Part shown: positions 1,513-21,472 of the stretch, in pieces
How the letters are laid out: the number at the start of each line of letters is the position of its first letter
Position numbering within the stretch: position 1 is the stretch's first letter
Assembly (NCBI GenBank): GCA_902826065.1
Contig: CADEDM010000006.1
Location: forward strand, 836 to 64,835
From: an uncultured Acidobacteriota bacterium
GTDB taxonomy: Bacteria; Acidobacteriota; Vicinamibacteria; Vicinamibacterales; UBA2999
Reading direction: 5' to 3'
DNA: 64,000 bases
The notes under the pieces: model-generated
The model's input: the letters and a program-made list of their open reading frames with translations, nothing else
The model's database searches: none
What the model was told of the DNA's origin: nothing
Position numbers and translations under genes: made by a program

Positions 1513-1552
1513 GACTGACCAGTCAGTACGGTAGAATGACTGGTCAGTCAGT
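1513..1552. promoter_or_regulatory. putative autoregulated promoter/operator of the TetR efflux operon
   Basis: Inverted repeat CTGACCAGTCA (1515-1525) / TGACTGGTCAG (1537-1547) flanks a TAGAAT -10-like hexamer (1532-1537) in otherwise GC-rich DNA. Confidence 0.5.
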
Positions 1553-2216
1553 GACCGCGATGCCAGCCCGCACCCCGACGCCTGCCGCCACCACCCGCGA
1601 AGACGTCCTCACCGCCTTCCGCCGCGATTCGCTGCTCGCCGCGGCCCGCCGTGTCTTCGGCGCCCGCGGCTTCGACGAGGCCACCGTCGACGCCATCGCC
1701 GCCGAGGCGCAGGTGGCCAAGGGCACGGTCTACCTGTATTTCCCGTCGAAGCTCGCGATCTACGAGGCGGCGTTCTCGTCCGGACTCGACGAGTTGACGA
1801 GACGCACCGATGCCCGCGTGCGCGAGGCCGCCACGCCGCGCGAGGCGATCCACGCCTTCATCGACGAGCGCGTCCAGTACTTCCAGGCGCATCCCGACTA
1901 CTTCAAGCTCTATGTCGTCGAGGTGGGCCGTCAGCTCACCGATCGCACGCCGCGCAAGAGCGGCTGCCGCGACGCCTTCGGCGCGCACACCCGAGTACTG
2001 CGCGACGTCCTCGCCCGCGCGGTCGCCAGCGGCGCCCTGCGCGACGTCGATCCGGCCGCGGCGGCGATGGCGGTGTTCGACATCACCCGTGGCCTCGTGG
2101 CGCGCCGGGTGCTGTCGCGGGCGCGTTCGGACGCCGCCGCCGAAGTGGCCTTTCTGACCGACCTCATGTGGACGGGGCTGTCGCCCACGTCCGTTCCCGC
2201 GGGATCTGCGCCATGA
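1536..2216 (+). CDS. TetR/AcrR family transcriptional repressor
   Basis: N-terminal HTH: FDEATVDAIAAEAQVAKGTVYLYFPSKLAIYEAAF. Its stop overlaps the next gene in ATGA. The true start may be GTG 1551 or ATG 1560, because ATG 1536 sits inside the -10-like box. Confidence 0.85.
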   Translation: MTGQSVTAMPARTPTPAATTREDVLTAFRRDSLLAAARRVFGARGFDEATVDAIAAEAQVAKGTVYLYFPSKLAIYEAAFSSGLDELTRRTDARVREAATPREAIHAFIDERVQYFQAHPDYFKLYVVEVGRQLTDRTPRKSGCRDAFGAHTRVLRDVLARAVASGALRDVDPAAAAMAVFDITRGLVARRVLSRARSDAAAEVAFLTDLMWTGLSPTSVPAGSAP

Positions 2217-3604: not shown

Positions 3605-4827
3605 TGGCTCTCGACGTTCGATCCTCGCGCGGCGTCGCGCGCTGGGTCGTGCTGGCTGCGGTCGTCATCGCGGTCGTGGCCGGCACGGTGGTATGGGCGC
3701 GCTCGGGCGCCGAGCGGACGGATGACGCGCAGATCGAGGGCCGCATCACGCCCATCGTCGCGCGCGTCGGCGGCACGATCATCACGATCGGCGTCACCGA
3801 CAACCAGTTCGTCGACGCCGGCACGGTGCTGTTCGAGATCGACCCGAAGGACTACGAGGTCGCCCTCGCCAAGGCCGAGGCCGAGCTGGCAGACGCCCAG
3901 GCCACGGCCCAGGCCGCCGGTACCGACGTGCCGATCGCGACGGTCACGGTCTCGAGCGACGTCCGCACGGCCGAGAGCGGCCTGACGGAGGCGCAGGCAG
4001 CGATTGCCGTCGCCGAGCGTCAGGTCGAGGCCGCTCACGCGCAGCGCTCGGCGGCCACGGCCCGCGAGCGGGAGCGCCAGGCGTCGGCCGCCAAGGCGGC
4101 GAAGGACGTCGAGCGTCTGAAGCCGCTCGTCGCCAAGGAGGAAGTGGCGCAGCAGCAGTACGACGCCGCCGTCGCCGCCGCCGATGCAGCGACCGCGGCC
4201 GTCGACGCCGCGAAGGCGGACGTCGCCGCCGAGATCAGTGCCGTCGCCGTGGCCGAGCAGCGGGCGGTGCAGGCGAAGTCGGCGGCGACGCGCGCCACTG
4301 CGGCCCTCGACGAGGCCCGTACGGCGCCCGAGCAGTTGCAGGGCACGCGGGCGCGCGCACTGGCCGCCGCGGCCCGCGTGAAGCAGGCCGAAGCCGCCGT
4401 GGCCCAGGCCCGGCTCGCGCTCGAGCGCACGGTGGTGAAGGCGCCGTCGGCCGGGGTGATCGGCCGCCGGGCGGTCGAAGTGGGGCAGAGCGTGCAGGCG
4501 TCGCAGCCGGCGATGGCGCTGGTGTCGCGAGACGACGTCTGGGTCGTGGCCAACTACAAGGAGACGCAGCTGGTCGACGTCGTGCCGGGGCAGGCTGCCA
4601 GCGTCGAGGTCGACGCCCTCGACGGCCGCGTGTTCACCGGCAAGGTCGACAGCATCGGCGCCGCCACCGGCGCCAAGTTCAGCCTGTTGCCGCCCGACAA
4701 CAGCACCGGCAACTTCGTGAAGGTGGTGCAGCGCGTGCCGGTGAAGATCCACCTCGACACCGGCCAGGACGCCGAGCACCGGCTGCGCCCGGGCCTGTCG
4801 GTCTTCGCCACCATCCGCACCCGCTAG
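3604..4827 (+). CDS. HlyD/EmrA-family membrane fusion (periplasmic adaptor) protein
   Basis: Single N-terminal TM, a biotinyl-lipoyl-like motif (ITPIVARVGGTIITIGV), a long Ala-rich coiled coil, and C-terminal VPVKIHLD. TAATG overlap with the tolC-like gene. Confidence 0.85.
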   Translation: MALDVRSSRGVARWVVLAAVVIAVVAGTVVWARSGAERTDDAQIEGRITPIVARVGGTIITIGVTDNQFVDAGTVLFEIDPKDYEVALAKAEAELADAQATAQAAGTDVPIATVTVSSDVRTAESGLTEAQAAIAVAERQVEAAHAQRSAATARERERQASAAKAAKDVERLKPLVAKEEVAQQQYDAAVAAADAATAAVDAAKADVAAEISAVAVAEQRAVQAKSAATRATAALDEARTAPEQLQGTRARALAAAARVKQAEAAVAQARLALERTVVKAPSAGVIGRRAVEVGQSVQASQPAMALVSRDDVWVVANYKETQLVDVVPGQAASVEVDALDGRVFTGKVDSIGAATGAKFSLLPPDNSTGNFVKVVQRVPVKIHLDTGQDAEHRLRPGLSVFATIRTR

Positions 4828-4833
4828 GACGTC

Positions 4834-6396
4834 GTGATGGACGCTCCGGCGCAACGCGTCGTCAATCCGTGGATCGTCGCGATCGCGGTCATGTTCGCGA
4901 CCTTCATGGAGGTGCTGGACACGACCGTGGTCAACGTGTCGCTGCCGCACATCGCCGGCAACCTCTCGGCGACGATCGACGAGTCGACCTGGGTGCTGAC
5001 CTCGTACCTCGTGGCCAACGCCATCGTGCTGCCGCTCACCGGCTGGCTGGCGTCCTACTTCGGACGCAAGCGGCTGCTGATGACGTCAGTGGCAGGCTTC
5101 ACGCTGTCGTCGCTGCTGTGCGGCCTGGCGCCGAACCTCGAATTGCTCGTGCTGTTCCGGCTGCTGCAGGGCTTCACCGGCGGCGCCATGCAGCCGCTGT
5201 CGCAGGCGGTGCTGCTCGAGGCGTTCCCGCCGGCCGAACGTGGCAAGGCGATGGGCTTCTGGGGCCTCGGCATCGTGGTGGCGCCGATCCTCGGCCCGGT
5301 GCTCGGCGGCTGGCTCACCGACACCTACAGCTGGCGCTGGGTCTTCTACATCAACCTGCCGGTCGGCCTGGCGTCGCTGGTGATGTCGTACCTGTTCATC
5401 TTCGACCCGCCGTACCTGCGGCGCGAGACCACCCGGATCGACTACTGGGGCATCGGCCTGCTGGCGCTGTGGGTGGGCACGCTGCAGCTGGCGCTCGATC
5501 TCGGCCAGCAGCGGGACTGGTTCTCGTCGCCGCTCATCACCACGCTGGTCGTGCTCTCGGGCGGCGGGCTGATCGCCTTCCTGGCGCGTGAGTGGCTGGC
5601 GAAGGAGCCGGTGATCGACCTGCGGGTGTTCAAGATCAGGAGCTATGCGACCGGCGTGTTCCTGATGACGACGCTCGGCTTCGTGCTCTATGGCAGCCTG
5701 GTGCTGCTGCCGATCATGCTGCAGACGCTGCTCGGCTATCCGTCGCTGCAGGCCGGGATTGCGATGGCGCCGCGCGGCATGGGCTCGCTCATCGGCATGC
5801 CGGTCGTCGGCATGATCGTGGGCAAGGTCGACGCCCGCAAGATGGTGGCGCTGGGGCTCGCCGTCGGCGCCGGGACGCTCTTCTGGCTCGGACAACTGAA
5901 CCTGAACGCCGGGTACTGGGACATCTTCTTCCCGCAGTTCGTCCAGGGCATCGGGTTGTCGCTGATCTTCGTGCCGCTCACCACCATCGCGATGGACCCG
6001 ATTCCGCGCGAGCGCATGGGCAACGCCACCAGTCTCTTCAGCCTGATGCGCAACCTCGGCGGCAGCATCGGGATCGCCGTCACCGGCACCCTGCTGACCC
6101 GCAAGCAGCACGCGTTCGGCCAGGTCCTGGGGGAGCACGTCACGCCGTACTCGGAGACGGCACGCACGACCTTCGAGGCGCTCCGCAACGGGTTCATGGC
6201 CAGCGGCACCGACGTCGTGACCGCGACGCAGAAGGCCTACGCGTCAATGGCCGGGCTGATTCAGCGGCAGGCGGCGATGGTGTCATTCGTCGAGGTGTTC
6301 CGGCTGCTCGGCGTGGTGTTCCTGCTGATGCTGCCGCTGGTGTTGCTGATGCGCCGGCCATCGGGCGGCCAGGGCGCGGCCGGCGCCGCGCACTGA
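4834..6396 (+). CDS. MFS drug:H+ antiporter, DHA2 (EmrB/QacA) family, 14-TM type
   Basis: Typical EmrB N-terminus NPWIVAIAVMFATFMEVLDTTVVNVSLPHIAG. Motif LPLTGWLASYFGRKR. Highly hydrophobic throughout. Begins with GTG-ATG. Confidence 0.9.
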   Translation: MMDAPAQRVVNPWIVAIAVMFATFMEVLDTTVVNVSLPHIAGNLSATIDESTWVLTSYLVANAIVLPLTGWLASYFGRKRLLMTSVAGFTLSSLLCGLAPNLELLVLFRLLQGFTGGAMQPLSQAVLLEAFPPAERGKAMGFWGLGIVVAPILGPVLGGWLTDTYSWRWVFYINLPVGLASLVMSYLFIFDPPYLRRETTRIDYWGIGLLALWVGTLQLALDLGQQRDWFSSPLITTLVVLSGGGLIAFLAREWLAKEPVIDLRVFKIRSYATGVFLMTTLGFVLYGSLVLLPIMLQTLLGYPSLQAGIAMAPRGMGSLIGMPVVGMIVGKVDARKMVALGLAVGAGTLFWLGQLNLNAGYWDIFFPQFVQGIGLSLIFVPLTTIAMDPIPRERMGNATSLFSLMRNLGGSIGIAVTGTLLTRKQHAFGQVLGEHVTPYSETARTTFEALRNGFMASGTDVVTATQKAYASMAGLIQRQAAMVSFVEVFRLLGVVFLLMLPLVLLMRRPSGGQGAAGAAH

Positions 6397-6464: not shown

Positions 6465-8069
6465 GTGTCCACCCACCGCTCCGTGCCGCATTGGGCCGTG
6501 CTCGTCCTCGCGCTCGCCCTGCTGAACGCGGCGCTCACGATCGTCAACATCTGGCCCACGCCGTTCGTCCGCCTGAGCGGCGACGTGTCGCTCGAACTGG
6601 CGCTGGTGGCCGCGTTCCTGGCCCTGGTGTGGCGGGCGATCATGCCGCGGCGCGTGGCCGCGGTCCGGGTGCTGGCCGTGGCCTGGGTGGCCCTGCTCGT
6701 CGGTCGCTACGCCGACGTCACCGCGCAGTCGATGTGGGGCCGCCCGATCAACCTCTACTGGGACGTGCCGCACGTCCCGTCCGTCGGCGCGATGTTCTCG
6801 GCGGTCGCGCATCCGGCGCTGATTGCCGGCGTCCTCGCCGCGCTCGTGCTCGTGCCGGTGGTCCTCTACCTGCCGTTGCGATGGGCCTGGGGCCGCGTCA
6901 TCGATGCGCTGCCGATGGCGCCCGTGCGCCACGCGCTGGTCGGCGTCGCCGTGGCCGCGACGGCGGTGGGCGCGGCGCAGCGGCTCGGCGAGCCGGTGCC
7001 GCAATGGCCCGGCGTCGCCACCCCGGTCACGCTGGTGTGGGCGCGCCAGGCCGGGCAGGTGGCCTATGAGATGTCCGGCGCCGGCGTGCGCGCGCTGGGC
7101 GAGCCGCCGACGTTCGCGTCGACGTTCTCGGCCATCCGCGGCGCCGACGTGCTGCTGCTGTTCGTCGAGTCGTACGGCGCGGTGAGCTGGGAGCGGCCGG
7201 CCTTCGCGCAGGCGCTCGCTGCTTCGCGCGCGGAACTCGACGCCGCCATCACGGACACCGGACGCGGCGTGGTCTCGACGTGGCTCGACTCGCCGACCTT
7301 CGGCGGGGAGTCGTGGCTGGCGCACATCAGCCTGCTGTCGGGCACGGAGATCCGCGACGGCGGCGCCAACCTGCGCCTGATGGCGCAGCAGCGCGACACG
7401 CTCGTGAAGGCGTTCGGTCGCGAGGGCTGGCGCACGGTGGCGGTGATGCCGGGTATCCGCGGTGCGTGGCCGCAAGGCGCCTTCTACGGCTTCGACACCA
7501 TCATCGACGCCAACGCGATGCCGTACGAGGGGCCGTCGTTCGGCTGGTGGGACGTGACCGACCAGTACTGTCTGGCGCTGGTCGACCAGCGGGAAGTGGC
7601 GCCGGCCAACCGTCCGCCGGCGTTCATCGTGTTCCCGACGCTGAGCACGCACACGCCGTTCACGCCGACGCCGCCGTATCAGCCCGACTGGTCGCGGATG
7701 CTCACGGCCACGCCGTACGACCAGGCTGCCCTCGACGAGACGTGGGGCATCCAGCCCGACTGGCTCGACATGGGCCCCGATTACGTGCGGGCGTTGAACT
7801 ACGCCACCCGCACGTTCGCCGGCTACCTGCGACAGCGCGCCGGCCACGACCTGGTGCTCATCCTCATCGGCGATCACCAACCACCCGCGCTGGTGACCGG
7901 CGAGGGTGCGCCCTGGACCGTCCCCATGCACGTCATCACCTCGCGGACGGCGCTGCTCGACCGACTGGCGGCGCGCGGCTTCACGCGCGGGCTGAGGCCC
8001 ACCGGGCCGGTGCGGTCGAAGATGCACGCGGTGGTGCCGGCGCTGCTCGAGGCGTTCGGCGACGAGTGA
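6465..8069 (+). CDS. membrane-anchored alkaline-phosphatase-superfamily transferase (LtaS/OpgB phosphoglycerol-transferase-like sulfatase fold)
   Basis: About 5 N-terminal TM helices followed by a soluble domain with VLLLFVESYG, FPTLSTHTPF and LIGDHQPP motifs. There is no in-frame ATG near the first TM, so I chose GTG 6465 (GTG 6483 is an alternative). The upstream part of track ORF 5592..8069 overlaps emrB out of frame. Confidence 0.7.
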   Translation: MSTHRSVPHWAVLVLALALLNAALTIVNIWPTPFVRLSGDVSLELALVAAFLALVWRAIMPRRVAAVRVLAVAWVALLVGRYADVTAQSMWGRPINLYWDVPHVPSVGAMFSAVAHPALIAGVLAALVLVPVVLYLPLRWAWGRVIDALPMAPVRHALVGVAVAATAVGAAQRLGEPVPQWPGVATPVTLVWARQAGQVAYEMSGAGVRALGEPPTFASTFSAIRGADVLLLFVESYGAVSWERPAFAQALAASRAELDAAITDTGRGVVSTWLDSPTFGGESWLAHISLLSGTEIRDGGANLRLMAQQRDTLVKAFGREGWRTVAVMPGIRGAWPQGAFYGFDTIIDANAMPYEGPSFGWWDVTDQYCLALVDQREVAPANRPPAFIVFPTLSTHTPFTPTPPYQPDWSRMLTATPYDQAALDETWGIQPDWLDMGPDYVRALNYATRTFAGYLRQRAGHDLVLILIGDHQPPALVTGEGAPWTVPMHVITSRTALLDRLAARGFTRGLRPTGPVRSKMHAVVPALLEAFGDE

Positions 8070-8092: not shown

Positions 8093-9547
8093 ATGCTCTT
8101 CACCGCCCCGTCGTTCCTCTTCGTGTTCCTGCCGCTGGTACTGGCGCTGCACGTGGTGCCCCACGCGGCCTGGCGCAACTGGCTGCTGCTGGCGGCGAGC
8201 GTCGTGTTCTACGCCTCGGGCGCCGGCGCCTTCACCAGCCTGATCCTGACCTCGATCGCGGTGAACTACGTGGCCGCGCTCGCCATCGACCGGCACCGCG
8301 GACGTCCGGCTGGCCGCTGGCTGCTGCGCGCCACCGTGGCCGCCAACCTCGTGGTGCTGGCGGTGTTCAAGTACGCGGGGTTCCTCGGCGCGAACCTCAA
8401 TGCCGCCCTGAACGTGGCCGGCGGCACGCCGCTGCCGGTGCCCGACATCACCCTGCCGATCGGCATCTCGTTCTTCACCTTCCACGCCATCTCGTACGTC
8501 GTCGACGTGGCGCGCGGCGACGCGGTGGCGCAGAAGGGCCCGGTGGAAGCGGCGCTCTACCTGCTCCTGTTCCCGCAGCTGATCGCCGGGCCGATCATCC
8601 GCTACCGTGAGATCGCGGGACAGCTGTCACGCCGCCTGGTCACGACGGCCGATGTGGCGCTCGGCGCGCGCCGCTTCGTCGTCGGGCTCGCCAAGAAGAC
8701 GCTGGTCGCCAATACCGTGGCGGCGCCGGCCGACCAGCTCTTCGCCCTGCCGAGTGCCGAGCTCACGGCCGCCACCGCGTGGCTCGCGGTCGTCTGCTAC
8801 ACGCTGCAGATCTACTTCGATTTCTCCGGCTACTCGGACATGGCACTCGGCCTGGGGCGGATGTTCGGCTTCCGCTTCCCCGAGAACTTCCGCTATCCGT
8901 ACGTCGCCACCTCGGTGCAGGACTTCTGGCGCCGCTGGCACCTGTCGCTGTCGGCGTGGTTCCGCGACTACCTGTACGTGCCGCTGGGTGGCAACCGCGT
9001 CGCGCCGGTGCGCGTCTACGTGAACCTGGTCACGGTGTTCGCCTTGTGCGGGCTGTGGCACGGCGCGAGCTGGACGTTCGTGGTGTGGGGGCTGTATCAC
9101 GGCACGTTCCTGGTGCTGGAGCGCCTGGCGAGCCACGATCGGGCAGCGACGACGCCCGGCCCTCTGCGGATGGCCACGGGCCATGTCTACGCGCTCGTGG
9201 TCGTGATGGTCGGCTGGGTGTTCTTCCGCGCCGACTCGCTGGCCGGTGCGTTCGGCGTGCTCGCGGCGATGAGCGGGCTCGGCGGCGCCGTGCCGGCGCG
9301 GTTCGATGTGTGGTGGTACCTCACGCCCGAGGTCGCGCTGGCCATCGTGGCCGGCGCCATCGGCGCGATGCCGGTGGCGCCGCTGCTCGCGTCGCGACTC
9401 GCGCCGGCGTCGACGCCCGACCGGCCGGCGACGATGGGCGCACTGGCGTCGGCGGGGACCGTGGCGGTGGTCGGCGTGCTGCTGGTGGCCTCGCTGCTCC
9501 TGAGCGCGGCGGGCACCTACAGCCCGTTCATCTATTTCCGCTTCTGA
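8093..9547 (+). CDS. MBOAT-family membrane O-acyltransferase (AlgI/DltB-like)
   Basis: MLFTAPSFLFVFLPLV start, FFTFHAISYVVDV with the conserved His, and WRRWHLSLSAWFRDYLYVPLGGNR. Confidence 0.9.
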   Translation: MLFTAPSFLFVFLPLVLALHVVPHAAWRNWLLLAASVVFYASGAGAFTSLILTSIAVNYVAALAIDRHRGRPAGRWLLRATVAANLVVLAVFKYAGFLGANLNAALNVAGGTPLPVPDITLPIGISFFTFHAISYVVDVARGDAVAQKGPVEAALYLLLFPQLIAGPIIRYREIAGQLSRRLVTTADVALGARRFVVGLAKKTLVANTVAAPADQLFALPSAELTAATAWLAVVCYTLQIYFDFSGYSDMALGLGRMFGFRFPENFRYPYVATSVQDFWRRWHLSLSAWFRDYLYVPLGGNRVAPVRVYVNLVTVFALCGLWHGASWTFVVWGLYHGTFLVLERLASHDRAATTPGPLRMATGHVYALVVVMVGWVFFRADSLAGAFGVLAAMSGLGGAVPARFDVWWYLTPEVALAIVAGAIGAMPVAPLLASRLAPASTPDRPATMGALASAGTVAVVGVLLVASLLLSAAGTYSPFIYFRF

Positions 9548-9549
9548 CC

Positions 9550-10728
9550 ATGGCCGTGTCCACCGCGCGACCTACCCACGACTGGCGCCCGCAACCGTGG
9601 GCGGAGCGCGTCATCGCGACGCTGATGGTCGTGGCCTTGGCCGCCCCGGGCCTCGCTACGGCCGTGGGCCTCGGCCGCGATGCGCAGCGCGACGAGGCGC
9701 CCGCCCCGCAGGCCGGCGGCGTGCTGGCCTCGACTGCGGCGGCCTTCGACGGACGCTTCGCCTACCGGGCGTGGTTCGTCACCGCGCAGGCGCGACTGCG
9801 CGAGGCGCTCTTCGGCGTGTCGCCGCTGCCGACGGTCTGGCGCGGCCGCGACGGGTGGTGGTACCTCGCCGCCGATGGCGCCGTCGAGGACACGCTGAAC
9901 GAGTCGCCGTTGTCCGCGGCGGATCTCGAGGCCTGGTGCACCACGCTGCAACACACCTACGACTGGCTGCGCGGACGCGGCATCGCGTACGTGTTCGTGG
10001 TCGCGCCCGACAAGCCGACCATCTATCCCGAGCACCTGCCGGCGAGCCTGCACCCGCGCCCCGGCACCACCCGCACCGACCAGCTCGTGACGGCCTTGAC
10101 GACCCGCACCACGGTGCCGCTCATCGACCTGCGCCCGGTGCTGCTGGCCGCCAAGCACGACGGCCCGCTCTTCCATCTCACCGACACACACTGGAACGAC
10201 GTCGGCGCGGCGCTGGCTTATCGCCAGGTACTCGGCGCGCTGGCCGGCCGCGTGCCGGGCCTGGCGCCGGCGGCTGGCGACGACGCGTTCACGCTGACGC
10301 CCACCCCGCAGCCGGGCGGCGATCTGGCCTCGATGCTGGGCTTGTCGTCGGCGCTACCCGAGACCGAGCGGCGCCTGGTGCCGCGGCGTCCGCGGCGTGC
10401 CCGCACGATCGAGCCGCCGACCAGCGAGAAGGGCTTCGGCGTGCCGCGGATGGTCACCGTCGTCGATGACGCCACGCTGCCGCGCGCGGTCGTCTATCGC
10501 GACTCGTTCGGATCGGCGCTGATTCCGTTCCTGGCCGAGCACTTCCAGCGCATGGTGGTGCTGTGGGAGTACGACGTCGTGCCGGCAACCATCCGCGAAG
10601 AACGGCCGCAGGTCGTGATCCACGAGTGGGTCGGCCGGCGCCTGCACACACGCCTGCCCTACGACGCGATCGCGGCCGATGCGGCGGCGGCCGCCGACCT
10701 CACGCGTAGCGCGCTGGCGCGTCGATGA
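9550..10728 (+). CDS. AlgJ/AlgX-like SGNH-fold polysaccharide O-acetyltransferase partner
   Basis: N-terminal anchor VIATLMVVALAAPGLA. Catalytic-type LFHLTDTHWNDVGA (DxHW) and GGDLASMLGL motifs. Starts 2 nt after the MBOAT stop. The track ORF 8779..10728 is an out-of-frame extension over the MBOAT gene. Confidence 0.75.
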   Translation: MAVSTARPTHDWRPQPWAERVIATLMVVALAAPGLATAVGLGRDAQRDEAPAPQAGGVLASTAAAFDGRFAYRAWFVTAQARLREALFGVSPLPTVWRGRDGWWYLAADGAVEDTLNESPLSAADLEAWCTTLQHTYDWLRGRGIAYVFVVAPDKPTIYPEHLPASLHPRPGTTRTDQLVTALTTRTTVPLIDLRPVLLAAKHDGPLFHLTDTHWNDVGAALAYRQVLGALAGRVPGLAPAAGDDAFTLTPTPQPGGDLASMLGLSSALPETERRLVPRRPRRARTIEPPTSEKGFGVPRMVTVVDDATLPRAVVYRDSFGSALIPFLAEHFQRMVVLWEYDVVPATIREERPQVVIHEWVGRRLHTRLPYDAIAADAAAAADLTRSALARR

Positions 10729-11970: not shown

Positions 11971-12759
11971 TCACGCGCGCGGACGCGGGCCGGCGGACGG
12001 GACGCCGGCGAGCGCCTCGAGGAACGTCGGGCCGCCGTGGCTGCCGGGGGCCCGATGGAAGTGCTCGACGTCGAGCAGCGCCTCCACGGCGTCGTCGGTG
12101 ATCGCCGCGAAGGCGCTGGCCGAGAACTGCGAGTGGTGGGCACGGATGGCGGCCAGCTTGGTGCGGGCGTAGTGCCCGCACGGCACGACCAGCGTCGGCG
12201 GCGCGGCGGCGGCGCCGAACGCGTCGGGGTCGAGCAGCCCGGGCACGACCGGGCGCCCCGACGGATCGGCGGCGGCGACGCGTCGCATCTGGCCGGGCGG
12301 CATGGTGACGCAGTAGAGGGCCGGCGCCTCGTCGCCGAGCGCGGTCACCGCCGCGGCGGTGCGTTCCCAGACGGCGATGTGATCGGGATGCCAGTAGAGG
12401 CCGTCCTCGCCGAAGGTGATGACGATGGTGGCGCCAACGAGGCGGATGGCACGGGTGATGTCGGCGATCAGCGCATCGGCGTCGACCCACGGCAGCAGGC
12501 CGTCGGGATGGCTGCGCAGCATCGCGCACGGCGCGTCGAGCAGGCGCGCGGCGGCGAGGAACTCCTCGGCACGACGCCTCGACAGCGGCGTCAGCGTGCC
12601 GCTGTCGCTGTTCGCCCCGGCCTCGCCACGCGTCAGCGTCAGTACGGCGGTGCGAGCGCCCGACGCGCGGGCTCGCGCCAGCGTGGCGCCGCAGGCCAGC
12701 GACTCGTCGTCGGGATGTGCGACGACGACCAGCAGCGTCGGCGCCGCGGCGTCAGCCAC
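11971..12759 (-). CDS. PIG-L/LmbE-family N-acetylglucosaminyl deacetylase
   Basis: LLVVVAHPDDESLACG (the AHPDDE zinc motif) and HPDH further on. 8-nt overlap with the upstream GT4 gene. Confidence 0.85.
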   Translation of the reverse strand: MADAAAPTLLVVVAHPDDESLACGATLARARASGARTAVLTLTRGEAGANSDSGTLTPLSRRRAEEFLAAARLLDAPCAMLRSHPDGLLPWVDADALIADITRAIRLVGATIVITFGEDGLYWHPDHIAVWERTAAAVTALGDEAPALYCVTMPPGQMRRVAAADPSGRPVVPGLLDPDAFGAAAAPPTLVVPCGHYARTKLAAIRAHHSQFSASAFAAITDDAVEALLDVEHFHRAPGSHGGPTFLEALAGVPSAGPRPRA

Positions 12760-13801
12760 GCGCGGCTCCCGACGCCTGTGCGACCCGCCGGTAGACGGCC
12801 TCGTAGGCGGCGACCATGCGATCGAGGCCGAAGCGGGCGACGGCGGTGTCGCGGACGCGGCCGCGGTCGAGCGCGAGCACGCCGGCCAGGCCCTCGACCA
12901 GTGCCTCCTCGGATGCGAACACCCCGCCGGTGACCCCGTCCTCGACGATCTCGGCGACCGCGCCGATGTCGAGAGCCGCGCACGGCGTGCCGCAGGCCAT
13001 GGCCTCGGCCAGCACCAGGCCGAACGGCTCGGGCAACTGCACCGGGTAGAGCAGTGCGCGGGCGCCGCCGAGCAGCGCCACCTTGTCGGCGCCGACGACC
13101 TCCCCGAGGTAGCGGATCTGATCGCCGTCGACCAGCGGCGCCACGAACTCGCGGTAGTAGTCGTTCTCCTCGGCCGCCAGCAGCAGCCGCAGGCCGGCGC
13201 GGCGGGCCACGCCGATGGCCTGACGCGCGCCCTTGCCCTTGGTGAAGCGGCCGAGGAACAGCAGGTAGTCGTCGGGCACCGCCCGGAAGGTGTAGGCGGC
13301 CATGTCGATGGCGTGGTGCACCGTGTCGAGGACGTTCAGGCCCTCCATGCGCCGCGCCTGTTCGCCCGACACGGCCACGAACGGCGCCTCGGGATAGCGA
13401 CGCCAGATGGCGACCTCCTCGGGCTGCGGCGCATAGTGGACGGTGTGCAGCACCGGCGTCGTGACGAGCCGCGTGAACGGCAGCGACATCGGCCAGTACT
13501 CGCACTGGACGTGGATGACGTCGAACGACGCCGCCCGTTCGATCGCCGCGCCGACGTTCAGCATCTCGCACAACTCCCACGTCCACAGCGACGGGTCGTC
13601 GCGGTAGCCGATCGGGAAGGTCGCGTGCAGCCGGGCCGACGTCGTGGAGCTGCCGATGGCGAACAGCGTGACGTCGTGGCCGCGGGCCACCAGGCCCTCG
13701 ACCAGGTACGACGTCAGCGCCTCGATCGATCCGGACCGTGGCGGCGGCACAGACGTCGCCACCGGCGCGACCACCGCAATGCGCAGCGCGCCGCCGGTCA
13801 T
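12752..13801 (-). CDS. GT4-family (GT-B fold) glycosyltransferase
   Basis: LRIAVVAPVATSVPPPRSGSIE N-domain and a C-terminal EPFGLVLAEAMACGTPCAA (EX7E-type) motif. ATGA overlap with the upstream gene. Confidence 0.85.
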   Translation of the reverse strand: MTGGALRIAVVAPVATSVPPPRSGSIEALTSYLVEGLVARGHDVTLFAIGSSTTSARLHATFPIGYRDDPSLWTWELCEMLNVGAAIERAASFDVIHVQCEYWPMSLPFTRLVTTPVLHTVHYAPQPEEVAIWRRYPEAPFVAVSGEQARRMEGLNVLDTVHHAIDMAAYTFRAVPDDYLLFLGRFTKGKGARQAIGVARRAGLRLLLAAEENDYYREFVAPLVDGDQIRYLGEVVGADKVALLGGARALLYPVQLPEPFGLVLAEAMACGTPCAALDIGAVAEIVEDGVTGGVFASEEALVEGLAGVLALDRGRVRDTAVARFGLDRMVAAYEAVYRRVAQASGAARG

Positions 13802-14919
13802 GACAGGGCCGTTTCCAGGAACGGCGGCAGCACGCGCGATGCCTCGAACACGTCCCCGGCGATCTCGCGCGCCCGGCGGCGGTGACGGGCCTCGTCGGTG
13901 GCGATCGTCTCGAGCCCGGCCAGCGCCTGGTCCGGCGTCGAGAACGGCAGCAGGCCCTCCCCGTGCGGCAGATGGGCCGACCAGCCGGTGTCCTGCACGA
14001 GCGCCGGGCGTCCGGCCGAGAGATAGCACTGGGTGCGATCGCTGAACCAGCCCGAGCGATGCGCGACGTAGGCGTGCTTGGCCACGCCGAACTCGCCCCG
14101 CGAGCCCTGCAGGTAGGCGCGGTAGTCCCACAGATGGCGCGACACGCCCATGCCGTCCACCGTCGTCCAGCCGTGCTCGCGCAGGAAGTCCTGCGGGCCG
14201 TTCACGGCCAGTTCGATGGCGTGCGGACTGCGTTTCGCGACGTCGAGGAACTTCATGAACTCGATGTTCTTGTTGCCGTCGACGTCGGCGAAGCTCTCGA
14301 TCTTCCACGTCATCACGGTGGTGAAGCGGCTCGCCGGCAGGTCGTCCGGCGTCGCCCACGCGGCCGTGACCACGGGCTGCCAGGTCTTGTGCCACGTGAA
14401 GCCGGCCGTGGGCACGTCCGACGCCGGCGTGCCGATGTTCGCGCCGAAGGTGAAGAGGTGGTGGAAGCGGCGGAAGAAGTCGACGTACGACGGGTCGCCC
14501 TTCATGAGGGCGAGCTGCGTGAAGACGGGATCGGTGTCGACGAACACGGCGCGCGGAATCTTCGCGTACTCGTCGCGCCAGAACCACGACCCGCCGGAGA
14601 GATTGATGAACAGGTCGGCGTCGGCGGCGAACGCCTGCAGCCGCTGGCGCGGCGCGCCGTGATAGGTGCCGTCCCAGTTGACGAACGTCCAGCGGTCGCC
14701 GAGGCCGAACGGGGCCAGGGCGGCGTGGATGTAGCGCGTGCCGTAGCCCGGGTCCTTCGAGATCGTGTTCTCGACCGGGTCGTAGATGCACTCGCCGGTG
14801 TCCTCGACGTAGAAGACGTCGTGGCCCAGGGCCCGCAGGCCCAGCAAGTACATGAGTGAGCACCACGTGACGCCCCCGAACGGGTAGCGCGCGATGATGC
14901 CGGCGACGAGGATCTTCAC
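13798..14919 (-). CDS. putative glycosyltransferase, CgeB-like (Glyco_trans_1_2-type C-terminal domain)
   Basis: MKILVAGIIARYPFGGVTWCSLMYLLGLRALGHDVFYVED start and C-terminal SDRTQCYLSAGRPALVQDTG...GEGLLPF. Family assignment is from memory of similar GT-associated proteins. Confidence 0.55.
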   Translation of the reverse strand: MKILVAGIIARYPFGGVTWCSLMYLLGLRALGHDVFYVEDTGECIYDPVENTISKDPGYGTRYIHAALAPFGLGDRWTFVNWDGTYHGAPRQRLQAFAADADLFINLSGGSWFWRDEYAKIPRAVFVDTDPVFTQLALMKGDPSYVDFFRRFHHLFTFGANIGTPASDVPTAGFTWHKTWQPVVTAAWATPDDLPASRFTTVMTWKIESFADVDGNKNIEFMKFLDVAKRSPHAIELAVNGPQDFLREHGWTTVDGMGVSRHLWDYRAYLQGSRGEFGVAKHAYVAHRSGWFSDRTQCYLSAGRPALVQDTGWSAHLPHGEGLLPFSTPDQALAGLETIATDEARHRRRAREIAGDVFEASRVLPPFLETALS

Positions 14920-14932
14920 GGACGGCCCGGGC

Positions 14933-16749
<1,817 letters not shown>

Positions 16750-16753
<4 letters not shown>

Positions 16754-19629
16754 GCGCGCCTCTTGAGCGGATCCCGTTTCGGCGGCGTCGGCGCCGGCGT
16801 CACCCGCGGCCGCTTGGTGGGCTGCGGCGCCACGGCCAGCGGGCGCGTCACCATCGGCGGCGGCGCCGCGCTCTGGATGATCGGATGGCGCGCCGGAAGC
16901 GGCGATGGGACCGGGCGATCCTGCAGCAGCGAGATGCCGCTCACCGTGGCGCTCACGGCCAGCACCGCCGCGGTGACCGCCTGGCCCTTCTGCAGCGGCC
17001 GCGACGGCTGCCAGCGCAGGCGTGCCCGTGCCGGCCCGGCCAGCGACAGGAACCCGGCCTGCGCGCCGACGCGCATCAGCGCCTGGTCGAGCACGGCCAG
17101 GCTGCGCAGCGCCTGCCAGCACGCACGCAGAATCAGGCCGCCGGCGAGCACCACGGCCGCGAGGCTGGCGGTGGGCCAGCGCAGCGCGATGGCGGCGCTG
17201 GTCGCCGCGACGAGCGCGGCGGCGAGAATGAGCGCCCGCACCAGCCCGTGCACGTTGGGTTGCAGCCGCGCCCCGATGCGGCACAAGCAGCGTCCGCGCT
17301 CGTGCTCTTCCACCAGCGTCCGTACGTGCAGCCAGCCCCAGCGGCCAACCGAGAGGCTCAGGTCGCGATCGCCGTTCCAGCCGTCGTCGATGTGCACGCG
17401 CCGCGTCGGCCGCACCGCGCGCAGGCTCGCCGCCAGGGCGCTGAGCAGCGTCGTGGAGGCCAGCCACGACTCGCTCCAGAACGTCCACTCGACGGTGCCA
17501 CCGAGCTGCACGCGCACCGAGGCCAGCAGGCTCCGGATCGAGCTGGCCGAGGCCCGCCACGGCACGCCGGTGACGTGCGGCGAGTCGCCGACGTCGGGTG
17601 GCGAGGCCCAGCCCCGCAGGCGGCCGTAGACGCGTGCGATCGGCTGCAGCAGGTGCAGCCAGGCGATCAGCAGGCGGTACTGCAGCCGGCTGCGCCACGC
17701 CGAGCGGTGACGGATCGGGCCCAGGCTCGACAGATCGGTCCGCAGCGCGAACGACACGCAGCGTCCCACCGTCGTCACCCAGCCGAGCAGGCCGGCGGCG
17801 AGCAGCAGGGCCGTGGCGTCGCCGGGCCGCACGGTCAGCCCGACCAGGCCGGCCAGCACGAGCAGCGTCGACGCGATCATCCACACCGGCGCGTGCGGCA
17901 GGAACTGCACCGGATGCGACTCGGTGCGATAGACCGACGGGAACGGCGCCGTGCCCCAGAGCCCGGTGTTGACGCGCCGGCCCGAAAGCGAGCGGACGAA
18001 CGGCAGCGGGCTGTAGATGTGGCCGCGCCACAGCATCTGCCCGCCGACGAATTTCTCCGGGTGATGCGCCTCGAGCCAGGTCTCACCTTCGCCGTAGCCG
18101 ACCTGCTGGCGCCAGTAGGCCCTCACCGACGCACGGTGGTGGTGCCACACGAGCGCCGCCGGCGCGAAGCCGATGCGCTGGCCCTTCGCCTGCAGCCGCC
18201 AGCAGATGTCGACGTCGTCGCCGGCGCGCAGGTAGACCGGGTTGAAGCCGCCGATGGTGCGCAGCGCGTCGCGGCGGAACGCCATGTTGCAGCCGGGCAC
18301 GTGTTCGGCGATGCGATCGTCGAGCAGCACGTGGGTCGGACCGCCGGGTGCGCGCGCGACCGACTGGGCGATCCACGGATCGTCGGGCGGAACGACGTTG
18401 GGGCCGCCGGAGCCGACCACGTCCGTCCGCAGCATCGGCTGCACGAGGTAAGTGAGCCAGTCTTCGTCGACGCGCACATCGGCGTCGGTGTAGGCCACGA
18501 TCTCGCCGTCGGCATGGGCGAGACCGACGTTGCGGGCCGCCGAGAGGCCGGCGTTCGCCTGGCTCACGACGCGTACGAACGGATAGCGCGCGGCGATGGC
18601 CGCGGTGGCGTCTTTGGAGCCGTCGTCGACGACGATCACCTCGTACCGCGGATAGGTGAGCGTCTGCAGCGAGCGCAGGCAGTCGTCGAGGGTGTCGGCG
18701 GCGTTGTAGGCGCAGACCACCACCGAGACCAGCGGCCACGTCGCCCGTTCGTCCTCGACGAACGGCGCCTGCTGGAAGACGCGCGACACCGTGGCGAGGG
18801 CCGGCTTCGGACGCCGTTCGTGATCCACGAGTCCGAACGCCCAGTCGTCGACGTCGTGTCCGCCGCGCCACCACTCGTCGGTCCACGCGAACGCAATCGC
18901 GCCGGCGGCCCCTTCGCGGAACGCCGTCTGCACCTGCGCCGCGGTGAGTCGCGCCTGGCCGTCGAGCCCCTCGCGGATGCTGTCAGCGCCGGCCTCGGCG
19001 AGCAACAGCGGCCGGACGCCGGCGACGTGCTGCAGGCGGCCGAGATACGCGCGTAGGTCGGCCTCGTGATGCAGGTAGACGTTGAACGCGCAGACGTCGA
19101 AGCAGTCCAGATCGAGATACTCGGTCGGCGGGAAGTTGGCGTAGGCGAGCAGCGCCGCGGGCGCCGCCGACTTCGACTCCGCGTACAACGATCGCAGGAA
19201 GCGCTCGACGCGCGCCGGACCGTGCCAACGGACGACGCCGGGCGGGATCTCGTTGCCCACCGCGAACAGCAGCGCCGCCGGATGGCCGGCCATGCGCGCG
19301 ACCTCGGCCGCGACGTCGCGCCGGACGCGGCGCGTGAGCGCGGCGTCGTCGAGGAACGCGACGTGCTGCGTCCATGGGATGCCGGCCATGACGCGCAGCC
19401 CGTGCTGCGCCGCCAGATCCAGCACGGCCGTGGGCGGCCGCGTGTAGGTGCGAACCGTGTTGAGGCCGGCGGCGGCCATCGCGGCGAAGTCGCTCGCCAC
19501 GCGATCCAGCGACGGGAACTGCGAGCCGGTGGCGTCGGGGGCGAACGTGCCGTAGGTGACGCCCTTTACGAGGAAGCGCCGGCCGTCGACCTCGAGGAAC
19601 TTCCCGGAGATACGGGGTGCAATGGACAT
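16750..19629 (-). CDS. fusion protein: N-terminal clan GH-A TIM-barrel glycosidase-like domain + GT2 processive-type glycosyltransferase + C-terminal multi-TM region and Pro-rich tail
   Basis: GH-A hallmarks are FAVGNEIPP (acid/base NE) and LLLAEAGADS (nucleophile E). GT2 hallmarks are VSVVVCAYNAADTL, VVDDGSKD, YTDADV, GCNMAFRR, DDVD and WRQQVGYGEG. About 5-6 TM helices follow residue 610. I chose the start at MSIAPRISGKFLEVDG; alternatives are 19659 and 19728. Confidence 0.8.
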
Positions 19630-19644
19630 GCGGCTGAGTGAACG

Positions 19645-19682
19645 CGGAGAGAATTCCATTCTAGCGCTTGCAGCTAGGATGC
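19645..19682. promoter_or_regulatory. AT-rich divergent control region with two short inverted repeats
   Basis: AGAATtccATTCT and CTAGCgcttgcaGCTAG lie between the GT2 fusion gene and the phosphoesterase gene. The AT-rich island contrasts with the flanking GC-rich DNA. Confidence 0.35.
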
Positions 19683-19726
19683 CAACGTGTCGGGGCGGAT
19701 TATGCTTGCGCCCGCGAATGTCACGC

Positions 19727-21472
19727 ATGAAAGGCCGTTCTCATCCCCCGCCGGGTGTGTATTTCTTCACCGCCCTGGGTGGCGTGCTGCTCGCCGTGTG
19801 GGTAGCAGCCCAGCCGTCGCCATTGACGACGCTGTCGATCGTCGGCACCACCGACCTCCACGGCTACGTTTTCCCGCGCGACGGCGCCGGCGGCGTGGTG
19901 CTGCTCGGGGGCTATCTGGCGCGGCTGCGCGCCGCACGCCTCGCGGACCGCGGCGGCGTCGTACTGGTCGACGCCGGGGATACCTGGCTCGGCGGTGTCG
20001 AGGCCAACATGTCCGAGGGCGCGGTCGTCGTCGACGCCTACAACGCGCTCGGCTACACGGCCGCGGCGGTGGGCAATCACGACCTCGAGTTCGGCGCGGT
20101 CGACCCGTGGTGGGCGCGTCCCGGTGAACCGGCGGACCTGCGCGGCGCACTCAAGGCCCGAGCGCACCAGGCCCGCTTCCCGTTCCTCGCCGCCAACCTC
20201 GTCGACGTCGCGACCGGGCAGCCGGTGAACTGGCCGAACGTCCGCCGTTCGGCGCTGGTGGAGATCGCGGGCGTGCGCGTGGGCCTCGTCGGCGTGATGA
20301 CGCTCGACGCGTTGTCGATGACGCTGGCGCCGAACGTCGTCGGGCTGACGACCTCGCCTCTGGCGCCGGCGATCGAACACGAGGCGACGTCCCTCCGTGG
20401 CCGCGGCGCGCAGGTGGTGGTGGTCGTGGCGCATGCCGGCGGCTGGTGCAGCGGGTTCGCCGCGCCTGACGACGTATCGACGTGCGACGCGTCATCCGAG
20501 ATCTTCGAGGTCGCTCGCGCGCTTCCCGCCGGCCTCGTCGACGCGATCGCGGCCGGTCACACGCACGAGGCGATCGCGCACCGCGTCGCCGGGATTCCCA
20601 TCGCGCAGGCGTGGTCGTGGGGCCGCGCCTTCAGCCGCATCGACCTGCAGGTGGATCGCGCGACCGGCAGGGTCGCGGGGGCGCGGGTCTTCCCGCCGCA
20701 GGATCTCTGCGCGTGGCGCGACACCCGCACCGGCCGCTGCGCGCCGGCCCCGGGGCCCGACACCGCGGCCGCGGAGTACGAGGGCGGCGTGGTGACGCCG
20801 GACGCGGCGGTGACGCAGGCAATGGCGCCGGCACTCGCGCGCATCCGGGCCGTGCGCGACACGGTGCTCGGGCCGGCGCTGGACGCGCCGGTCGGGCGCG
20901 GGCCGGGGGACGGCGACTCGCCGCTGGGCAACGTGTTCGCCGACGCGATCCGGTCGGCGGTGCCTGGCGCCGCCGCGGCGCTGAGCTACGGCGCGGGCCC
21001 CGGCGGCTTGCGCGCCGACCTGCGCTCCGGTCCCGTGACCGTCGGCGCCGTCTACGACGCGTTTCCGTACGACAACCGCATCGAGGTTCGCCGCCTGACC
21101 GGCGCGGAGCTCACGCGTCTCGTCGGCGATCACATGGCGCGGCCGCGCTTCCGCTCGCGGGCGCTGGGCCTGTCGGGCCTGCGGGTGGCCGTCAGCTGCG
21201 TCGACGGACGCGACCACGTGACCTTGTCGAACGCCACCGGACAGGTGCTGCCGGACGACGTCCCCCTGGTCGTGGCGATGACGGACTTTCTCGGCAGTCG
21301 CGTACGGGCCTTGAAGCTCGGCGCCGAGGTGCCGCTGCCCGAGGCGCCGCTGTTGCGTGACGCGGCGGCGACGTGGATTCGCAGCCAGCGCGGCGCGGAC
21401 CTGACGGGCGTCACCGCGGCGCCGCGCTGGAGCCGCGCCCCCGGCGCGCCGGCGTCCTGCACCACGCCTTGA
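19727..21472 (+). CDS. secreted bifunctional metallophosphoesterase/5'-nucleotidase (UshA-like)
   Basis: Signal/anchor GVYFFTALGGVLLAVWVAA. Calcineurin-like motifs GTTDLHG, DAGDTWLGG, VGNHDLEFG, VVAHAG and AAGHTHE. A C-terminal 5'-nucleotidase substrate domain. ATG 19718 is an alternative start. Confidence 0.8.
   Translation: MKGRSHPPPGVYFFTALGGVLLAVWVAAQPSPLTTLSIVGTTDLHGYVFPRDGAGGVVLLGGYLARLRAARLADRGGVVLVDAGDTWLGGVEANMSEGAVVVDAYNALGYTAAAVGNHDLEFGAVDPWWARPGEPADLRGALKARAHQARFPFLAANLVDVATGQPVNWPNVRRSALVEIAGVRVGLVGVMTLDALSMTLAPNVVGLTTSPLAPAIEHEATSLRGRGAQVVVVVAHAGGWCSGFAAPDDVSTCDASSEIFEVARALPAGLVDAIAAGHTHEAIAHRVAGIPIAQAWSWGRAFSRIDLQVDRATGRVAGARVFPPQDLCAWRDTRTGRCAPAPGPDTAAAEYEGGVVTPDAAVTQAMAPALARIRAVRDTVLGPALDAPVGRGPGDGDSPLGNVFADAIRSAVPGAAAALSYGAGPGGLRADLRSGPVTVGAVYDAFPYDNRIEVRRLTGAELTRLVGDHMARPRFRSRALGLSGLRVAVSCVDGRDHVTLSNATGQVLPDDVPLVVAMTDFLGSRVRALKLGAEVPLPEAPLLRDAAATWIRSQRGADLTGVTAAPRWSRAPGAPASCTTP

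Follow-up and report, generated by a model that had tools for sequence, protein, structure and literature searches.

A predicted cytoplasm-facing fusion of a clan GH-A glycosidase-like barrel and a GT2 glycosyltransferase, coupled to an ABC exporter in Acidobacteriota and other phyla

Within a 64,000-nucleotide stretch of contig CADEDM010000006.1 from an uncultured Acidobacteriota bacterium of the order Vicinamibacterales (assembly GCA_902826065.1), hereafter the window, a single gene, here called SYN, encodes a clan GH-A (beta/alpha)8 barrel that runs directly into a family GT2 glycosyltransferase domain and then into a series of transmembrane (TM) helices (Table 1). Barrel and GT2 domain lie on the same side of the membrane, the catalytic residues of both are conserved among relatives, the barrel is homologous to enzymes of families GH157, GH72 and GH2, and the gene is accompanied across phyla by an ATP-binding cassette (ABC) exporter, to which it is naturally fused in one relative. 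Tentatively, and with somewhat less than even confidence, SYN is interpreted as a bifunctional, cytoplasm-facing glycan synthase and processing enzyme of an ABC-exporter-dependent pathway, a function that we infer from homology, conservation and synteny.

SYN had been described from the sequence alone as one polypeptide of about 960 amino acids (aa), and a single open reading frame (ORF) of that kind was found, giving 959 aa from the ATG at 19629, which is the gene-call length of a 72%-identical Acidobacteriota homolog (P0009). Full-length homologs of the same length occur at 72-84% identity, and the closest named relatives are metagenome-assembled genomes of Vicinamibacterales (Acidobacteriota). 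The farthest ATG (16750..19728, minus strand, 992 aa) was rejected as the start, given that the gene calls of homologs favour 19629, and the topology is independent of this choice because the 33 additional upstream codons encode no hydrophobic segment. All motifs quoted in the sequence-only reading were located in the translation, namely FAVGNEIPP (aa 122-130), LLLAEAGADS (208-217), DDG (335-337), DAD (382-384), GCNMAFRR (446-453), DDVD (471-474) and WRQQVGYGEG (506-515). An artefactual or frameshifted fusion is ruled out by the occurrence of the same architecture in hundreds of species, where barrel and GT2 form a single polypeptide rather than two proteins separated by a downstream start, and the short 'stand-alone' barrel matches that were inspected were truncated or frameshifted fragments, not separate glycosidases. 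The AlphaFold 2 (AF2) model of the whole chain has a predicted local distance difference test score (pLDDT) of 83.8 and a predicted template modelling score (pTM) of 0.81, the latter suggesting a defined arrangement between the domains.

The GH-A-like character of the N-terminal domain was upheld by profile, by sequence search against solved structures and by fold. Pfam Glyco_hydro_2_C (PF02836; the GH2 TIM barrel) matched aa 7-237 with 35.0 bits (cut-off 21), the model exceeded a pLDDT of 90 over aa 10-290 with strands and helices in alternation, and the top Foldseek matches to this region were all GH-A barrels (GH157, GH2 and GH5). The multi-domain architecture of GH2 enzymes was not found, as PF02836 matched alone and from residue 7, with neither a match nor room for the N-terminal jelly-roll and Ig-like domains. 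Conservation was assessed in an alignment of 48 family members (A1), comprising SYN and 47 relatives down to 35% identity obtained by an exhaustive profile-free search. The glutamates that had been proposed as acid/base and nucleophile within the first two quoted motifs are invariant in this set, and N126 nearly so; in the model N126-E127 close strand 119-126 and E212 lies within strand 208-213. R60, N183, Y185 (or F), D251 and W253 are conserved as well, and in the model these residues occupy C-terminal strand ends, the placement seen in the 4/7 (GH-A) superfamily. Judged from this pattern of conservation, the barrel is very probably catalytic.

By both sequence and fold, the closest solved relative of the barrel is LaGH157 from Labilibaculum antarcticum (phmmer E 2.3e-9, family profile 7e-21, Foldseek E 1e-14; PDB 9fz9, 9g5g and 9g4n), in which VINEPQ aligns with VGNEIPP of SYN, and E212 aligns with the glutamate changed to alanine (E224A) in 9g4n, a mutant crystallised with laminaritriose. 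Enzymes of GH157 are endo-beta-1,3-glucanases (PMC10637969), with activity measured on linear beta-1,3-glucan (PMC10229575). The next matches of the family profile were GH2 beta-glucuronidase/beta-galacturonidase barrels (3.6e-15) and GH158 (1.6e-9), another beta-1,3-glucanase family. Half of the aligned family members (24/48) also matched the Pfam model of GH72 (PF03198) at E <= 0.01, including a Scytonema member that scored 48.8 bits against a cut-off of 25.9 over nearly the full profile length, better than its own GH2_C score; SYN itself did not match PF03198 at E <= 1, and GH17 (PF00332) was matched neither by SYN nor by any family member examined. Of the 537-aa LaGH157 chain, residues ~4-282 alone are the counterpart of the barrel, which on these comparisons looks like a sister family of GH157 and not a member of it, and its sequence relationships place it as a distinct GH-A lineage between GH157, GH72 and GH2. 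The nearest characterised relatives are thus biased towards beta-1,3-glucan, a substrate best treated as a lead at ~17% identity. Among the three roles suggested for the barrel by the sequence-only reading (primer-trimming, transglycosylating or substrate-binding), transglycosylation appears the most likely, because these nearest characterised relatives are beta-1,3-glucan enzymes (GH157, GH72 and GH158).

The barrel continues directly into the GT2 domain, as had been proposed, and Pfam Glycos_transf_2 (PF00535) matched aa 302-459 with 120.7 bits (cut-off 23.3; E 8e-35). No NCBIfam equivalog exceeded its cut-off for SYN, the sub-threshold GT2 matches being MftF-like (171 vs 280 bits), EpsD and PgaC. 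The motifs D336, D382-x-D384, G470-D-D472 and Q508-Q-x-G-Y512 are conserved in 46-48 of the 48 aligned sequences, with D382-x-D384 in all of them; the G and Y at the R and W positions of Q(Q/R)xRW are found in 41-46, an equivalence to QxxRW that is drawn from position and not from superposition. By comparison with BcsA, PgaC and HAS, we take the GDD of SYN to occupy the place of the (T/G)ED catalytic base, and QQxGY, in the helix right after the GT-A core, presumably stands where those enzymes have Q(Q/R)xRW, with Tyr in the position of Trp. Foldseek matched the GT2 region to GT2 enzymes and to BcsA, the latter over ~730 aligned columns with a poor superposition (rmsd, the root-mean-square deviation, ~26 A; TM-score ~0.25). 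No TM helix precedes the GT2 domain in any of the 48 sequences, and all known channel-forming GT2 synthases have TM helices N-terminal of the glycosyltransferase. The motifs point to synthase-type chemistry, while a self-contained channel is doubtful. The earlier label of a synthase, in the sense of synthase-dependent systems, is accordingly not established, given the lack of N-terminal TM helices, the change of QxxRW to QQxGY and the ABC exporter as partner.

Topology was assigned from Kyte-Doolittle hydropathy and from the AF2 model, which agree. The N-terminal 575 residues are soluble and are followed by five TM helices (~576-600, 605-630, 793-816, 819-842/857 and, weaker than the others, 881-903), so that the lower of the 5-6 helices counted in the sequence-only reading was recovered and no sixth was found. 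Neither a signal peptide nor a TM helix was detected before the barrel or between barrel and GT2 in SYN or in its 47 relatives (35-60% identity), all of which extend N-terminally of the barrel by 2-59 residues of hydrophilic sequence; this agrees with the initial description of the N-terminus, and the linker at aa ~270-300 is modelled as two short helices. Since the donors of GT2 enzymes are nucleotide sugars, this domain must face the cytoplasm, and because no TM helix intervenes the barrel must be cytoplasmic too, which bears out the same-side arrangement proposed at the outset. TM1-TM4 are conserved family-wide, while TM5 is confined to the clade of the window and to relatives with a C-terminal NHL propeller. 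The Pro-rich tail that had been noted lies at aa ~904-959 and contains 17 Pro and 11 Lys plus Arg in 56 residues, its membrane side being uncertain; apart from the TM5 helix, the TM5/tail region has a pLDDT <50. Between the two hairpins, the Arg-rich insert at aa 631-792 holds 22 Lys plus Arg, conserved QPxxRxxxR and W-DL / E-H positions occur at aa 644-791, and the small alpha/beta domain of the insert matched no family, Pfam included. A PilZ-like cyclic di-GMP domain between TM2 and TM3 was considered and rejected, as there was no Pfam PilZ match at E <= 1 and the spacing is wrong; of the candidate residues R666-R670 (RxxxR) and D756-x-S, only R666, R670 and D756 are conserved, leaving cyclic di-GMP binding unsupported.

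Directly downstream, the GTG start of the ABC exporter overlaps the stop codon of SYN (GTGA), and the exporter is followed by U373, a predicted GT-B-fold glycosyltransferase. Gene neighbours were surveyed by tblastn over 83 SYN loci and by ORF clustering over 44 diverse loci. The exporter was found in 56 of the 83 loci and U373 in 50, on the same strand, nearly always downstream and in all phyla, with many of the misses explained by contig ends. ORF clustering recovered this core as well. All NCBIfam matches of the exporter fall below their cut-offs, an MsbA-related model being the best (MsbA_rel, 416 bits) and PglK also matching; the scores for PRK13657 (glucan exporter; 341 vs 733) and TIGR01192 (257 vs 585) do not assign it to the ChvA/NdvA/Cgt group, and HepA, the heterocyst polysaccharide exporter, was likewise rejected (340 bits vs a cut-off of 725). 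U373 had no match in Pfam, in NCBIfam or among PDB sequences, and a model built from an alignment of close homologs (A3) matched GT4-like retaining glycosyltransferases in Foldseek (tll1591, ManT, PimA and BshA). From this model U373 appears to represent an unclassified glycosyltransferase family, a few members of which weakly match PF13524, and it often occurs as 2-3 (tandem) paralogs per locus. Among the 44 diverse loci, a pair of hexapeptide (LbH) acetyltransferases was present in 11 and UXS-like nucleoside diphosphate (NDP)-sugar enzymes upstream in 12, NDP-sugar dehydratase genes occur in the SYN loci of other phyla, and a Chlorobium locus has an additional DegT aminotransferase. Such cytoplasmic tailoring enzymes fit a glycan that would be completely assembled inside the cell before export.

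The fusion is widespread. A search with the barrel alone returned 2828 clusters (50% identity level) at E <= 1e-3 and 494 at E <= 1e-30, and the full-length clusters are mostly 820-920 aa with the barrel N-terminal. In a scan of one genome per species, SYN relatives were encoded in at least 595 species from more than 12 phyla, and in the best 80 loci, which were kept, the match covers barrel, GT2 and TM region. The phyla include Acidobacteriota, Bacteroidota, Cyanobacteria, Chloroflexota, Nitrospirota and Gemmatimonadota, with further relatives in Actinomycetota, Proteobacteria, Chlorobium, Planctomycetota and Latescibacterota, and cultured carriers include Nibrella, Segetibacter, Scytonema HK-05, Nostoc and Synechococcus 1G10. 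A literature search for this fusion family found no paper and no characterised member. One relative of 1421 aa (P0158) is a natural fusion of SYN with the ABC exporter. Other variants were also observed. Relatives of ~1250 aa (P0021, P0029-P0049 and others) carry a C-terminal NHL/TEN_NHL beta-propeller following the fifth TM helix, and one of 1062 aa (P0144) was read as having an additional N-terminal DPM1/GtrB-like GT2 domain. In heterocystous cyanobacteria (L074, 9818-12004 and 12011-12598; also L071) the gene is split, with the small cytoplasmic domain and TM3-4 forming their own ORF of ~195 aa, followed by two ABC half-transporter genes instead of one.

In the sequence-only reading, a glycosidase-like barrel on the same side as the transferase was called unexpected by comparison with BcsZ, PslG, PelA and PgaB. 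These are indeed separate periplasmic glycosidases and differ from SYN in that respect: BcsA/BcsZ, Pel/PelA, Psl/PslG and PgaC/PgaB likewise pair a GT2 bearing synthase-type motifs with a glycosidase acting on the same polymer, but there the cell secretes the glycosidase as a protein of its own and the GT2 forms its own channel, whereas SYN unites the two domains, both cytoplasmic, in one chain and has an ABC exporter as its conserved export partner. The word was nevertheless too strong, since Cgs has GH144-like and GH94 domains in the cytoplasm (PMC10901819) and NdvB fuses GH17 to GT2 (PMC10237404). NdvB (or 'Orphan') of pseudomonads and Bradyrhizobium is a GH17-GT2 fusion for cyclic beta-1,3-glucan, in which the GT2 is proposed to feed the glucan to the fused GH17 for cleavage and cyclisation; a signal peptide precedes its barrel, TM helices lie between barrel and GT2, and the barrel is modelled as periplasmic (PMC10237404). 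SYN resembles it in being one membrane polypeptide of similar size (family core ~830-880 aa) with an N-terminal GH-A barrel related to beta-1,3-glucan transglycosylases and a GT2, and in the proposed logic whereby the GT2 makes a beta-glucan that the barrel cleaves and re-joins. The SYN barrel is, however, GH157/GH72/GH2-like and not GH17, has no signal peptide and runs straight into the GT2; in contrast to the GT2 of NdvB, which is flanked by TM helices on both sides in a BcsA-like manner, the TM helices of SYN are all C-terminal and its conserved partner is an ABC exporter. Membership of SYN in the NdvB family is ruled out by topology and by GH family.

A second comparison is with Cgs, which makes, cuts and cyclises beta-1,2-glucan wholly in the cytoplasm by means of a GH144-like cyclase and a GH94 phosphorylase, all of its soluble domains lying in the cytoplasm beside the glycosyltransferase, with export by the ABC transporter Cgt (PMC10901819). 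SYN shares with Cgs/Cgt (ChvA/NdvA) the placement of GH-type domains on the cytoplasmic face with the glycosyltransferase and an exporter of the same general type, in which a transmembrane domain is joined to a nucleotide-binding domain, while Cgs is a protein of ~2800 aa combining GT84 with (alpha/alpha)6 GH144-like and GH94 domains, none of which was detected in SYN with Pfam, NCBIfam or Foldseek, the folds of the two proteins being unrelated. Among the relatives of the barrel itself, LaGH157 is the best match in sequence and fold, with the NE and nucleophile glutamates aligned, whereas the GH157 enzyme BcellWH2_01931 belongs to a glucan utilisation locus and serves in degradation at the cell surface (PMC10229575) and the SYN barrel is cytoplasmic and fused to GT2. 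The GH72 enzymes (Gas/Gel/Phr) are retaining GH-A transglycosylases, the fungal beta-1,3-glucanosyltransferases, whose profile half of the SYN family matches, and they differ in being extracellular, glycosylphosphatidylinositol-anchored enzymes of the fungal wall. By analogy, SYN would work like Cgs/Cgt and NdvB in logic while being a member of neither family. The fusion of a glycosyltransferase to a glycan-processing glycosidase is a known theme, of which the SYN family is a very widespread and uncharacterised variant; its new features are a topology in which GH-A barrel and GT2 are neighbours in the cytoplasm and a conserved link with an MsbA-like exporter and with novel GT-B enzymes.

The two domains are chemically compatible: beta-linkages are what inverting GT2 enzymes form and what retaining GH-A enzymes attack, and the latter are capable of transglycosylation. 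In the bifunctional mechanism proposed here for SYN, an inverting GT2, anchored at the inner membrane face by two TM hairpins and using an alpha-linked NDP-sugar donor, would extend a beta-linked chain, most likely in beta-1,3-gluco configuration. The retaining barrel, presumably packed rigidly on the GT2, would then cut this chain and pass the glycosyl-enzyme intermediate to a sugar acceptor and not to water, thereby releasing the chain from its primer and/or branching, re-joining or cyclising it. Similarity to GH72 transglycosylases, together with the Cgs and NdvB precedents, argues for release, branching or cyclisation by transglycosylation, and a pure hydrolase is disfavoured because it would be futile when fused to its own synthase in the cytoplasm. 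The co-encoded GT-B enzymes would decorate the product, which in the window the GT4, PIG-L and methyltransferase-like proteins may also do; the translationally coupled MsbA/ChvA-like exporter would move the finished glycan across the membrane; and once it has left the cytoplasm, the MBOAT/AlgX pair and the sulfatase-family transferase of this organism may modify it. Assembly at the cytoplasmic face followed by ATP-driven export, as opposed to co-synthetic translocation, fits the conserved unit of SYN, exporter and GT-B enzyme together with the tailoring enzymes. We infer the chemistry, that is transglycosylation over hydrolysis, the sugar and the linkage, from the relationships set out above, and the exporter would presumably carry the product of SYN, as a free or a lipid-linked glycan. 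The separate propositions that the product is a beta-1,3-glucan and that it is cyclised are each less likely than the reading as a whole. In its boldest form, in which one GT2/GH-A enzyme polymerises, cuts and re-joins (cyclises or branches) a chain wholly in the cytoplasm and a type-IV-like ABC exporter pumps it out by an unrecognised and widespread route, the proposal is unlikely.

Several observations weigh against the bifunctional interpretation. The barrel is ~17% identical to LaGH157 and GH2 enzymes score nearly as well, so beta-1,3-glucan specificity is weakly indicated, and a hydrolase is not separable from a transglycosylase by sequence. The four conserved TM helices and the interface helices might still build a channel, whether in a monomer or in an oligomer; MsbA and HepA are at least as close to the exporter as ChvA/NdvA is; the UXS-like and amino-sugar genes of some loci suggest a heteropolysaccharide in place of a plain glucan; and the literature yielded neither biochemical nor genetic results on members of the family.

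Among the alternatives, the one that survives best, though we consider it unlikely, is a lipid-linked pathway of the O-antigen or lipid-linked-oligosaccharide kind, in which the GT2 would polymerise on an undecaprenyl-(pyro)phosphate primer at the cytoplasmic face, the GT-B enzymes would supply primer or side chains, the barrel would be an endo-acting regulator or terminator of chain length and the exporter a PglK/MsbA-type flippase. The exporter is most like MsbA-related models and also matches PglK, some relatives are labelled 'O-antigen biosynthesis protein' by JGI (the Joint Genome Institute), the NDP-sugar dehydratase, DegT and LbH acetyltransferase genes of other phyla are typical of O-antigen and protein-glycosylation clusters, and the N-terminal DPM1/GtrB-like domain that we read in P0144 would accord with such a pathway. 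On the other side, the conserved neighbour clusters contained no gene for an initiating polyprenyl-phosphate glycosyl-phosphate transferase or for a ligase and none of the Wzz-like kind, in a search that was not exhaustive. The known ABC-dependent O-antigen systems use ABC-2 (Wzm/Wzt) transporters and non-hydrolytic chain terminators, and no precedent is known for a cytoplasmic glycanase acting as a ruler.

SYN could also be a classical processive synthase that translocates its product through its own, possibly oligomeric, TM channel, with the barrel acting as a genuine hydrolase in trimming or removing stalled chains or in making primers, in effect the role of BcsZ moved inside, and with the exporter serving another substrate. 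The conserved GT2 motifs, with GDD in the TED position and Q-Q-x-G-Y in the QxxRW position, and the long Foldseek alignment with BcsA are consistent with this, and the order of elements after the glycosyltransferase (an IF-like helix, two TM helices, a long helix and two further TM helices) resembles the C-terminal half of BcsA. The superposition with BcsA is nevertheless poor, the N-terminal TM helices are absent, it would be futile for a cytoplasmic hydrolase to destroy what the synthase fused to it has made, and the linkage to the exporter, by translational coupling, cross-phylum synteny and natural fusion, is too tight for a transporter of something else, which makes this explanation rather doubtful. 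Improbable in our judgement is a barrel that is catalytically dead, or a pure carbohydrate-binding or scaffold module holding acceptor or primer for the GT2 or docking the exporter: there are many cases of GH-like folds turned into binding modules and the identity to characterised GH enzymes is 17-20%, but both catalytic glutamates are invariant and R60, N126, N183, Y185 and W253 are conserved across the 48 sequences, which is unexpected for a non-catalytic module.

Table 1. Features of SYN and of neighbouring genes, in window coordinates
Feature	Position	Strand	Evidence and remarks
SYN gene	16750..19629	-	Single ORF, 959 aa + stop; GH-A-like barrel/GT2/TM fusion
Clan GH-A (beta/alpha)8 barrel, aa ~5-290	18760..19617	-	Pfam PF02836, LaGH157 match, Foldseek, AF2 model
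N126-E127, putative acid/base 'NE', end of strand 4	19249..19254	-	E127 48/48, N126 47/48
E212, putative nucleophile, end of strand 7	18994..18996	-	48/48
GT2 (GT-A fold) domain, aa ~298-530	18040..18738	-	PF00535, PF13641, PF13632; conserved motifs; Foldseek
TM hairpin 1 (TM1 ~576-600, TM2 ~605-630)	17740..17904	-	Kyte-Doolittle peaks 2.21, 1.66; model helices 581-600, 604-630; in relatives too
Cytoplasmic insert	17257..17700	-	Long helix 644-674, disordered 677-703, small alpha/beta domain 712-791 (model)
TM hairpin 2 (TM3 ~793-816, TM4 ~819-857)	17059..17253	-	Hydropathy, model, relatives; most family members terminate here
TM5 (aa 881-903) and Pro-rich basic tail (aa 904-959)	16753..16989	-	Clade-specific; TM5 Kyte-Doolittle 1.97
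ABC exporter, TMD-NBD half-transporter, 606 aa	14933..16753	-	Pfam ABC_membrane + ABC_tran
U373, predicted GT-B-fold glycosyltransferase, 373 aa	13798..14919	-	AF2 pLDDT 85.7, pTM 0.89
GT4	12752-13801	-	Pfam
PIG-L/LmbE-type de-N-acetylase	11971-12759	-	Pfam; NCBIfam MshB/BshB-like, weak
Methyltransferase-like protein, 420 aa	10700-11962	-	Pfam
Membrane sulfatase-family transferase	~6465-8069	+	Pfam; 4 N-terminal TMs (start/TM estimate)
MBOAT	8093-9547	+	Pfam
AlgX-like SGNH protein	~9530-10728	+	Pfam

Beyond the conserved unit, the GT4, PIG-L, methyltransferase-like, MBOAT, AlgX and sulfatase-family genes are confined to Vicinamibacterales-type loci among the 83 surveyed. The GT4/PIG-L pair is reminiscent of the MshA/MshB, BshA/BshB and GlcNAc-PI (N-acetylglucosaminyl-phosphatidylinositol) pathways, in which an alpha-GlcNAc is added and then de-N-acetylated to GlcN, and all of its NCBIfam scores fall far below the cut-offs. 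The sulfatase-family, MBOAT and AlgX genes converge on the SYN operon and are syntenic in its closest relatives only; they look like an extracytoplasmic module for O-acylation and phospho-substitution of an exported glycan, and the sulfatase-family protein was read as having an LtaS/OpgB/EptA-like architecture. Directly upstream of SYN lies a divergent 5'-nucleotidase-like gene (19556-21472, plus strand; match to the C-terminal domain alone), which is syntenic in 3/83 loci, all closest relatives. The genes at 1536-6396 (plus strand) encode a TetR regulator, an outer-membrane efflux protein (OEP), an HlyD-type membrane-fusion protein and an MFS transporter, and make up a tripartite efflux operon of the EmrAB-TolC-like type, which has no relation to the glycan locus. 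The G+C content of the window is ~72%, and long shadow ORFs (14894-17629, plus; 16885-19056, plus; 14933-18031, minus; 723-1032 aa) run across the real genes, either antisense or in frame upstream, as is usual for a genome of this composition; in the locus comparison, antisense shadow ORFs surfaced as spurious 'conserved' clusters.

Textbook accounts usually divide glycan export in bacteria among three routes (Wzx/Wzy, ABC-2 transporter and synthase-dependent). SYN fits none of them cleanly, combining a synthase-type GT2 that lacks N-terminal channel helices with a predicted-active glycosidase on the same face and an MsbA-like exporter as partner. If the boldest form of the proposal is correct, the family would be a third independent solution to the synthesis of cyclic or processed beta-glucans beside Cgs and NdvB, and its barrel the first bacterial intracellular relative of GH72 and GH157 with a biosynthetic role. 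The barrel would widen the range of GH157/GH72-like enzymes, which covers degradation and the remodelling of fungal walls, to include biosynthesis in bacteria, and it could also be of use as a transglycosylase when oligosaccharides are to be made. Hosts in culture, among them Nibrella, Segetibacter, Scytonema, Nostoc and Litorilinea, bring the family within reach of direct testing. As the family spans at least 595 species in many phyla, its product could be a glycan that is common in the envelope or periplasm of bacteria from soil and water and has so far gone unrecognised.

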